A DNA stretch of 63,950 bases, filler included, from Collodictyon triciliatum (lineage: Eukaryota): NCBI GenBank assembly GCA_043381765.1. It is 28 parts of 28 records of this genome, joined end to end, with 100 filler letters (N's around TTAATTAATTAA, not from the genome) between each part and the next. Parts side by side here need not be neighbours in the genome. Positions count along the whole stretch, not along the records: positions 32,632 to 34,856 come from JBHJMP010009252.1; 27 more parts are not named here. The stretch is one strand, 5' to 3'. The translations under genes were made by a program, and so were the position numbers. Below the pieces are notes generated by a model. It was not told the DNA's origin, made no database searches, and saw only the letters and a list, made by a program, of their open reading frames with translations. Within the stretch, counting starts at the first letter, position 1. The number at the start of each line of letters is the position of its first letter. Of this stretch, positions 33,158 to 34,856 are shown piece after piece.

Positions 33158-34856
33158 ATGGACATAGGAGAGTTTTTAGCTATAAAACAAGTGCCATATG
33201 CTTATGCGCATTTTGTTCTGATTGATGGGCAAAAAGAAACAGTTAGAGAAAAAAACAACTGTGCGTTACCCGATTTACCTGAATGGAAGGAGAAAAGCAA
33301 GGATTCAGGTAATTGGATTCATAGGTTGAAACGCAAAATGAAATTAGAAGAAATCAGAAACGTTCAACGATGTTACTCAATATTTCTAAAGTACTGGGAT
33401 GTTGTTTGTATTGACTGTGATGACAAAAACATACACACTCCTAGAGAACTTGGAGAAAAATTGGGAATAGCCAGTTTCACAAATGATATGTGTTGAACAC
33501 CAGGTAACACAAAAGGGATTCATATATATATAAAGAAGCCAGCTAACTGGAATCCGCAATGGGAGGGCACAAAAGTTTTAGACGAAGGACACATAGACAT
33601 TGATGTGATATATAAAACAAAAAACACATGGGAACGACAAAACAAGTTGATATACAACGATGTACAGGAATTTGACATTACGCCTCTGATAGCAAAGTAC
33701 AAGTCAAAGAAAAGAAAAGAACCACAAACATCTGACACACCAGTCGATTCAGAAATAGAAGAACTAGTTGTGAATCGAAGTACCTTTCCTAAATTCCAAG
33801 AAAGAGCGACATGTGAATGTTTAGTCCGAATGGCTCTAGACCGGGACTTATTCAAATATATACCAGACGACTATAACACATGGATAAAGGTGTGTTACAT
33901 AATTGTTAATAATGGTATACGTGATTTGTCAAAGTTATGGTTGAGAATTTGCGAGCAAATGCCAGATAAATCTAAATCGACTATTGAAGATAGAATCAAT
34001 CAGCTGAAAAGTGTGATTGAAAATGTTCAACAAAACAAAGTCAAGAGCGAGTTAGGAGTAGGCTCACTGTTTGGCCTATTTCAAGAAAACCTTGATGGTG
34101 CCACATATACTGATTTATGTGGACATGTTGATATTAAAGAAGGACGTTATGCTTACAGCTATATCAAGGAAATATACGAAAAAGACCATTTTATCATGAA
34201 TGGTAAATACATTAGAATTAACGAGGATGGTACTTTACACACATTTACACAAAGCGAAGCCAGAATACAATACGGACATTACTATTACAAGATCGGAAAA
34301 GGTACTCACGTCGACTTTATTGATGACTTAAGAAGAGACGACGCTAAACGAATAGTCAGCAAACTAGTAATGCGCCCAGATTTACCTATAGATTTAGATC
34401 AATCCGTGTTTCCTCAAACATACAATATGTTTAGAGGTTATGAAATACAAAAGCATGGAGACATATATGTAAGCCTTACAGATGAAGAGACCAGCAAATT
34501 TTACAATAACAGTTGGATTACAGACCATCTGTACAATCAATTGTGTAACAAAGATTCTGAAGTATATGCTTATGTCATACAATGGTTTGCTCATTTATTG
34601 TTTGCACCTCATGAGATGGGTCGTTTTCATACTTGTCTTGTTTTCTATAGCGAAACAGAGGGTACCGGCAAATCATTTATTACTCAGGACTTGTTAATTG
34701 GAAAAATCATTGGTAAGCAGTACGGGGTAAAGTCGAGCAAGATGGCCGAGTTATTTGGTGAATTTAACGATCTAATAGAAAACAAAGTATTTGTGTTGCT
34801 AGAGGAGGGGCAACGCAAAGATGCTGTTCAGTTTACTGATGTTATGAAAGATGCTT
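33158..34856 (+). CDS. Virus-like AEP primase-polymerase / PriCT / SF3 (D5, NrS-1-like) helicase with one in-frame TGA, 3'-partial
   Basis: ORFs 33158-33496 and 33605-end share one frame, separated only by TGA 33494-33496. Motifs: VVCIDCDDK (AEP I), TPGNTKGIHIY (AEP II), IDIDV (III), DDYNTWIKVC (PriCT-2-like), YVIQWFAHLL..LVFYSETEGTGKS (Walker A) and FGEFNDLIENKVFVLLEE (Walker B). Confidence 0.88.

Follow-up and report, generated by a model that had tools for sequence, protein, structure and literature searches.

A Probable Viral Primase-Helicase Gene Broken by an In-Frame TGA in the Assembly of Collodictyon triciliatum

The Locus and Its Reading Frame

Here we describe a gene for a virus-like primase-helicase carried by one short contig in the genome assembly of the eukaryote Collodictyon triciliatum (GCA_043381765.1). 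The window analyzed is a stretch of 63,950 bases composed of 28 short contigs joined by N44-TTAATTAATTAA-N44 spacers, 27 of them 2217-2236 bp long, with a final piece of 1159 bp at the window end. The contig in question spans 32632-34856 (2225 bp, 35.9% GC) and holds the primase-helicase gene and a small upstream open reading frame (ORF) only (table 1). Plus-strand translation of 33158-34856 yields a frame of 566 codons whose sole stop is a TGA, codon 113 (..NDMC*TPGNTKGIHIY..). The original prediction had joined two ORF calls, one of 112 aa (33158-33496) and a stop-to-stop frame running from 33497 into the N spacer, into a single 566-codon frame broken by this TGA only, and the translation bears it out. 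The start, MDIGEFL, lines up with the starts of full-length relatives; at the other end the frame is cut by the contig 3' end after ..VMKDA, full-length relatives reaching some 770-792 aa, so that roughly the first three quarters of the gene are present. No frameshifts were seen in the contig frame despite runs of 7-10 G. This is no chance ORF, since an intact protein of 770 aa (P0002) matches it at 83% identity along its full length (100% of the query, E = 0), one of 10 proteins that reach E <= 1e-3 in a word-indexed search of 5.8 billion proteins.

Codon 113 sits between motifs I and II of the archaeo-eukaryotic primase (AEP) domain, 9 codons upstream of H122, which agrees with the earlier placement of the TGA just before AEP motif II. 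In the assembled sequence the domain is thus interrupted, motif I being parted from motifs II and III. The corresponding column holds Trp in all seven close relatives; across a 38-member alignment of the family it holds W in 18 sequences, Y in 10, and A in 3, the remainder having other residues or gaps. Trp is encoded by TGG elsewhere in the gene, as had been stated, with 10 TGG codons counted against the one TGA. The next in-frame ATG past the stop is codon 225, beyond the entire primase domain, so that a product of reinitiation would carry no primase domain.

Protein Domains and Fold

The architecture first proposed for this protein, AEP followed by a PriCT-2-like domain and a D5-type SF3 helicase, is right, with the PriCT part recognized through relatives only. 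Nine columns are invariant in the family alignment (38/38), namely D86, D88, H122, D149, W242, G502, G504, K505, and E550; they correspond to the three AEP motifs, the middle-domain Trp, and Walker A and B. A model of residues 1-335 was computed with AlphaFold from a 20-row alignment of the window and its relatives' loci (mean pLDDT confidence 83). In it, a beta-rich domain extends to around residue 180, residues 182-198 are disordered (pLDDT < 50), and 213-334 form a helical region, with D86/D88 on strand 82-87, H122 on strand 121-126, and D149 on strand 148-151. Prim-pols account for each of the top 10 Foldseek matches in the PDB: Sulfolobus 3m1m (E 2.4e-4), NrS-1 (7rr4, 6a9w, and 6k9a), and pRN1 (1rni and 9aam). 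Likewise, a VIA-align comparison of the model with 48,161 chains placed 1ro2 (Z 9.3, root mean square deviation 4.3, 154 residues aligned within 2-187), 6a9w (Z 8.6), and 3m1m (Z 8.4) well apart from the best unrelated row (Z 5.2). Both the motifs, DxD, xH, and hD in all 38 members, and the fold therefore support the AEP assignment.

The SF3 helicase is supported by three kinds of match. With the window protein read through and an X placed at the stop (P0001), Pfam returns DUF5906 only (residues 496-564, model positions 1-70 of 114), at 24.9 bits, a score that the truncation of the gene keeps under the cut-off of 27.6. PHROG gives phrog_1156, "DNA primase" (2.6e-8), and the helicase part has a profile match to PDB 6k9c/6k9e (E 6e-9, profile positions 455-665), listed as "Primase", which we take to be NrS-1 entries. 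The contig end cuts the helicase after Walker B, at residue 566, and some 205 residues are missing; the C-terminal region absent here is present in P0002 and in a metagenome contig described below (L003). The profile check suggested along with the original prediction thus returned DUF5906, if below cut-off, but the Pfam models Prim-Pol and PriCT_2 give no direct match to the window protein (E <= 1). The claim of a PriCT domain accordingly stands through the 38 aligned relatives, 25 of which match PriCT_2 (PF08707; best 2.7e-17); all 38 match DUF5906, 21 VapE-like, 3 Prim-Pol (PF09250; best 6.6e-8), and 1 Pox_D5. Structural matches for residues 213-334 are weak (Z <= 5.2). Between the two N-terminal domains, the basic KKRK cluster of the disordered linker resembles, to judge from its residues, a nuclear localization signal.

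Among known systems, the best fold match is ORF904 of the archaeal plasmid pRN1 (1ro2, 1rni, 3m1m), which shares the prim-pol catalytic core over residues 2-187 but has only 13-16% identity. The NrS-1 primase-polymerase (6a9w, 7rr4, 6k9a), from a deep-sea vent phage, has the same AEP fold (Foldseek E 3.8e-4 to 7.8e-4, VIA Z 8.6), likewise followed by a helical region and then an SF3 helicase; it differs in its bacterial host and in an identity of about 10-11% in the N-terminal part. Giant-virus D5-type primase-helicases follow the same plan, an AEP N-terminus and an SF3 helicase with a DUF5906 core, yet Pox_D5 occurs in a single one of the 38 family members, the window protein is much smaller, and African swine fever virus PrimPol (8wvz) gives a weak structural match only (Z 4.2, residues 217-330).

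Table 1. Features of the Primase-Helicase Contig
Feature	Position in window	Strand	Basis
Upstream small ORF, 54 aa from ATG 32665, ending in TAA	32632-32829	+	ORF call
Intergenic region, C-rich and G-rich tracts around an AT-rich core	32830-33157	+	Two GGYTTAAA
Primase-helicase codons 1-112, N-terminal part of AEP including motif I (D86-x-D88, 33413-33421)	33158-33493	+	Alignment, model
In-frame TGA, codon 113	33494-33496	+	Translation, relatives' column
Remaining AEP prim-pol with motif II H122 (33521-33523) and motif III D149 (33602-33604)	33497-33706	+	Alignment, model
Basic cluster K184-K185-R186-K187 in disordered linker	33707-33718	+	Invariant in close clade
Helical PriCT-2-like domain, residues 213-334, invariant W242	33794-34159	+	Alignment with PriCT_2-matching relatives
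D5/DUF5906-type SF3 helicase, N-terminal part; Walker A G502-T-G-K-S506 (34661-34675)	34415-34856	+	Pfam, PHROG, PDB
Walker B E549-E550 of SF3 helicase	34802-34807	+	Alignment

Relatives and Type of Element

All 10 proteins found by the word-indexed search come from metagenome or Logan sources and are annotated only as "hypothetical"; besides P0002, which is intact, they include six of 684-792 aa at 40-48% identity. An exhaustive profile search of 1.84 billion representatives returned 10,994 proteins at E <= 1e-3. Five full-length clusters (50% identity) beat 1e-200 and the next full-length match drops to 1e-42, which indicates a small, tight clade inside a very large primase-helicase family. 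As far as database searches show, this close clade is apparently an undescribed lineage. The public-run index listed 11 holders of the contig's words, all of them lake or freshwater metagenomes from nine studies and none containing more than 24% of the sampled words; neither an RNA run nor the source library is among these 11. At 80% likeness, contigs of run X1 span the whole contig (30 of 30 bins) and contigs of run X3 most of it (26 of 30), at about 90-95% identity, and metagenome contigs from both (X1, 33164-33626; X3, 33358-33818) span the codon 113 region at about 92%. Such coverage implies that close relatives circulate in fresh water. A scan of metagenomes for relatives returned 32 loci, and a scan of viral contigs one distant locus only (27% identity).

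Two of these loci supply a gene neighborhood. L002 (15,259 of a 16,409-bp contig; primase-helicase 47% identical) and L004 (12,876 bp; 41%) are mutually syntenic. In L002, a 240-aa ORF matches the Pox_A32 ATPase (1.5e-9). A 267-aa ORF, modeled from 19 sequences (pLDDT 79), has the mavirus penton 6g41 as its best match (E 5e-8), followed by the pentons of Sputnik (3j26_N), adenovirus, and Paramecium bursaria Chlorella virus 1. Its look-alikes in BFVD belong to Tetraselmis viridis virus S1, giant viruses ("putative minor capsid protein"), mavirus, adomaviruses, adintoviruses, and a Qinghai Lake virophage; among the 50 matches listed, those with a name are eukaryote viruses or metagenomic virus sequences (MELD virus, Virus NIOZ-UU159), and no phage is named. 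After the primase-helicase comes a 655-aa ORF with a weak rve_3 match, below cut-off (E 0.0024), whose Atlas look-alikes are rve proteins, largely of Preplasmiviricota (scores 0.90, TM 0.41-0.49), a lead only.

The same loci hold two further large genes. One encodes a 737-aa protein rich in Ser, Thr, Gly, and Asn (L002:4621-6834, minus strand), with its first ~170 residues about 78% identical in several relatives and the rest variable; its look-alikes are phage tail-fibre proteins, a lead only, and it is probably a host-recognition fibre. The other is a large ORF on the plus strand (L002:1024-4590, 1188 aa; L004:424-4452, 1342 aa) whose N-terminal half is a Gln-rich coiled coil; several hundred low-complexity residues rich in Pro and Ala come next, ahead of a C-terminal domain of some 250 aa, and neither Pfam nor PHROG has a family for it.

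Elements of this kind are already known, and two published accounts fit our observations. Polinton-like virus (PLV) and virophage insertions in protist genomes are described in PMC10120064 as 15-30 kb long and as typically carrying pPolB or a primase-helicase (Pri-Hel) together with a tyrosine recombinase (YR) or rve integrase; in short-read assemblies they split into short contigs and show premature stops, many of which are lost on polishing. PMC12220804 reports frequent AEP-S3H fusions in cryptophyte PLVs, as well as bacteriophage-like fibre proteins in PLVs. The window gene has the domain order of the Pri-Hel in those sources (AEP, helical domain, SF3 helicase), and, like the insertions described in PMC10120064, it has a premature stop and sits on a short contig within a eukaryote assembly. 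Its relatives adjoin penton, A32 ATPase, fibre-like, and rve-like integrase genes on contigs of about 16-17 kb, and it is on gene neighborhood and folds that its membership in the PLV/virophage group rests.

Overall, the relatives are PLV or virophage-type elements of eukaryotes rather than phage, and the contig is very probably a piece of one such small double-stranded DNA virus or integrating element (Preplasmiviricota), with a replication gene that was recently disabled or that contains a base error. The A32 ATPase, penton fold, and rve-like integrase of the relatives, together with the lack of phage signals, thus sustain the earlier proposal of a DNA virus or mobile element of Polinton-like or virophage kind. 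Several observations weigh against this assignment. Capsid, ATPase, and integrase genes are all missing from the window contig itself, as is any host junction; the virus type is read from relatives only 40-50% identical; and, as noted, Prim-Pol and PriCT_2 are missed by direct Pfam comparison. Neither the window contig nor the examined parts of L002 and L004 yielded an identifiable double jelly-roll major capsid protein; one candidate is a 205-aa N-terminal ORF fragment, without Pfam family, at the cut end of L002. Terminal repeats were found in none of the six loci checked, most of which are incomplete. Finally, the nearest named look-alikes of the fibre-like ORF and the ATPase are phage proteins.

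That last point bears on whether the contig derives instead from a bacteriophage or a bacterial contaminant, which we judge very unlikely. The wider family of 10,994 representatives does include phage primases, the best solved look-alikes are enzymes of phage NrS-1 and archaeal plasmids, and the fibre-like ORF of L002 resembles phage tail fibres. A tblastn search of 50,697 phage records also matched 20, but in the helicase part only (17-36% of the query, 22-30% identity). On the other side, the penton fold of L002 finds only eukaryotic-virus pentons among the 50 BFVD matches listed, and the rve-integrase-like gene with Preplasmiviricota look-alikes and the long Pro/Ala-rich low-complexity protein are likewise at odds with a phage. 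No Shine-Dalgarno-like motif precedes any of the 21 gene starts inspected, each being preceded instead by short AT-rich motifs, and 9 of 10 L002 ORFs have no PHROG family. A scan of 185,579 prokaryote genomes, limited to a pattern, gave 68 matches, none of which encodes a relative.

A Second Disrupted Copy and the Meaning of the TGA

A second break is known from the same lineage. L003, an independent metagenome contig of 1550 bp, matches window 34203-34855 at 93.6% nucleotide identity and supplies the gene's missing 3' end, its frame continuing to a TAA at 1269-1271. It has an in-frame TGA of its own (L003:471-473), aligned to the TCA Ser codon of the window's Walker A (34673-34675), which therefore reads GTGKS in the window and GIGK*F in L003. 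Synonymous divergence (dS) between the two copies is 0.16 and nonsynonymous divergence (dN) 0.045, a dN/dS of 0.28 over 217 codons. This ratio indicates that the lineage was under purifying selection until recently, so that each copy's private break looks recent.

The TGA of the window gene is a stop, not a sense codon or a recoding signal. What remains to be weighed is how it arose. The likeliest reading, one that we favor by a modest balance of probability, is a genuine nonsense allele of recent date in a copy that is defective or endogenous; P0002 attests that intact versions of the gene exist. A stop on a Trp codon is unremarkable for such a knockout, given that some 7-18% of random nonsense mutations in this gene are expected to fall on Trp codons (the range being set by transition bias). 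Two points count against it: the TGA is known from the assembled sequence alone, and both breaks in the close group are TGAs on highly conserved residues, a pattern slightly odd for random decay, if not significant with n = 2.

The TGA might otherwise be absent from the organism's DNA, the real gene being intact and the assembly marred by a base-call or consensus error or by the collapse of near-identical copies. We consider this unlikely, though far from negligible. An intact relative exists at 83% identity, and the contig ends in unique coding sequence, not in a microsatellite as its neighbors do, as would fit a break between repeat copies. PMC10120064 documents both the fragmentation of such elements into short contigs and the disappearance, after read-based polishing, of many premature stops from endogenous PLV and virophage genes. 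Against an error stand the rarity, by our own estimate, of a lone stop-creating substitution in a short-read consensus, the lack of frameshifts in spite of the G runs, and L003, which as an independent contig of the same lineage is also stopped in frame and so attests that real breaks occur in this group.

Were the TGA decoded, whether as Trp by a host with a variant nuclear code or through programmed readthrough, the full-length protein would be made. The codon does occupy the very column where all seven close relatives have Trp, a type of position that only about 7-18% of random stops would hit, and the stop in L003 is likewise TGA, not TAA or TAG. Even so, decoding appears improbable in the extreme. 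TGG outnumbers TGA 10 to 1 within the gene, and a 516-codon WD40 ORF on a neighboring contig, which closes with TAA, contains 21 TGG codons but not one TGA. TGA serves as the terminator of the primase-helicase in both L004 and L005 and of the L004 ATPase, and Trp in place of the Walker A Ser of L003 would give no working P-loop. The base after the window stop is A, and TGA-A is not known as a leaky stop context in eukaryotes. The original prediction had preferred a knockout or an error over TGA as Trp, and on codon counts, the terminators of the relatives, and the Ser position in L003 that preference was sound. There is also a slight chance that the private TGAs and the dN/dS of 0.28 reflect UGA readthrough by host or virus, or a selected switch-off of the replicase in endogenous copies. 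Were the latter true, switched-off copies could be kept for another role, such as defence against giant viruses, and be replicated in trans or by the host.

Upstream Region and Promoter-Like Motifs

The frame of the upstream ORF is open to the first base of the contig, so what is seen may be only the 3' part of a longer gene. It has no Pfam family at E <= 1 and no tblastx counterpart in L002 or L004; contigs of 4 of 4 lake or freshwater runs cover 32632-32856 at a likeness of at least 80%. The motif GGYTTAAA occurs twice in the window contig (32849-32856 and 33108-33115), against 0.24 expected. Its second copy lies 50 nt before the primase ATG, and in L002 and L004 it is found 38-40 nt before that of the relatives (L002:9952 and 15204 [reverse]; L004:9239). 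Its recurrence 38-50 nt before the primase-helicase ATG of three elements with proteins only 41-47% identical suggests that it may be a putative early promoter element. A hairpin between the C-rich and G-rich tracts (32860-33070) was considered and rejected, as it is not significant (z = -1.63, with 12 of 200 shuffles folding equally). Structural genes of the relatives have another AT-rich motif, of the AATTTCT(T/G)G type, about 8-14 nt before their ATG (L002:6854-7657, 7692-8030, and 4621-6834; L004:6912-7676, 7711-8058, 4482-6896, and 32-391), and this may be a late promoter.

Other Contigs of the Window

The original prediction had set the contig, free of microsatellites, apart from the host contigs around it. 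Tandem Repeats Finder returned 95 rows window-wide, none within 32632-34856, and placed a microsatellite at the start or end of most other contigs, in accordance with that claim. Long ORFs under the standard code are missing from most of the others as well; where they occur, Pfam identified WD40 and reverse transcriptase, and six others had no family. A tblastx comparison of the other 27 contigs with 33 loci of relatives disclosed no further viral fragment in the window. This make-up fits a short-read assembly of a repeat-rich eukaryote.

The WD40-repeat ORF (516 aa, intron-less; 12349-13896, minus strand, and 13002-13896) fills a neighboring contig; its DNA is a 135-bp tandem array of 6.6 copies with 85% matches, and the contig opens with a 488-base A-rich run (11666-12153). 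A reverse-transcriptase ORF fragment (RVT_1, 2.1e-18) at 10989-11564 on the plus strand is probably a host retroelement. At 58% GC, the contig at 2337-4569 stands out from the others (30-44%); both of its strands bear long ORFs that overlap, the longest without a Pfam family, and it may be a contaminant or a repeat. The sole Rfam match in the window is a tRNA gene at 43545-43616 on the minus strand (RF00005, 67 bits).

Functional and Evolutionary Implications

To judge from the families concerned, the AEP domain of the intact protein would make, and perhaps extend, primers, with D86, D88, and D149 holding metal and H122 binding the nucleotide. The helical domain would aid primer initiation, the helicase would act as an ATP-driven ring that opens the element's DNA, and the KKRK linker may direct the protein to the nucleus. 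In the window copy, where the TGA acts as a stop, only the first 112 residues would be translated; as the next ATG lies past the primase, the copy as assembled could not make its own replicase. It would then be either a recently disabled copy, in an endogenous insertion or a defective genome, which we think most likely, or the product of an assembly base error.

These findings leave the picture of the genetic code and of primase-helicases unchanged. They are of use in annotating the assembly, in which the contig should count as viral rather than as carrying a host gene, and in surveys of endogenous viruses. For Collodictyon triciliatum, they point to the presence of such a virus in, or alongside, the sequenced eukaryote, and to the replication genes of PLVs they add one apparently undescribed freshwater lineage.

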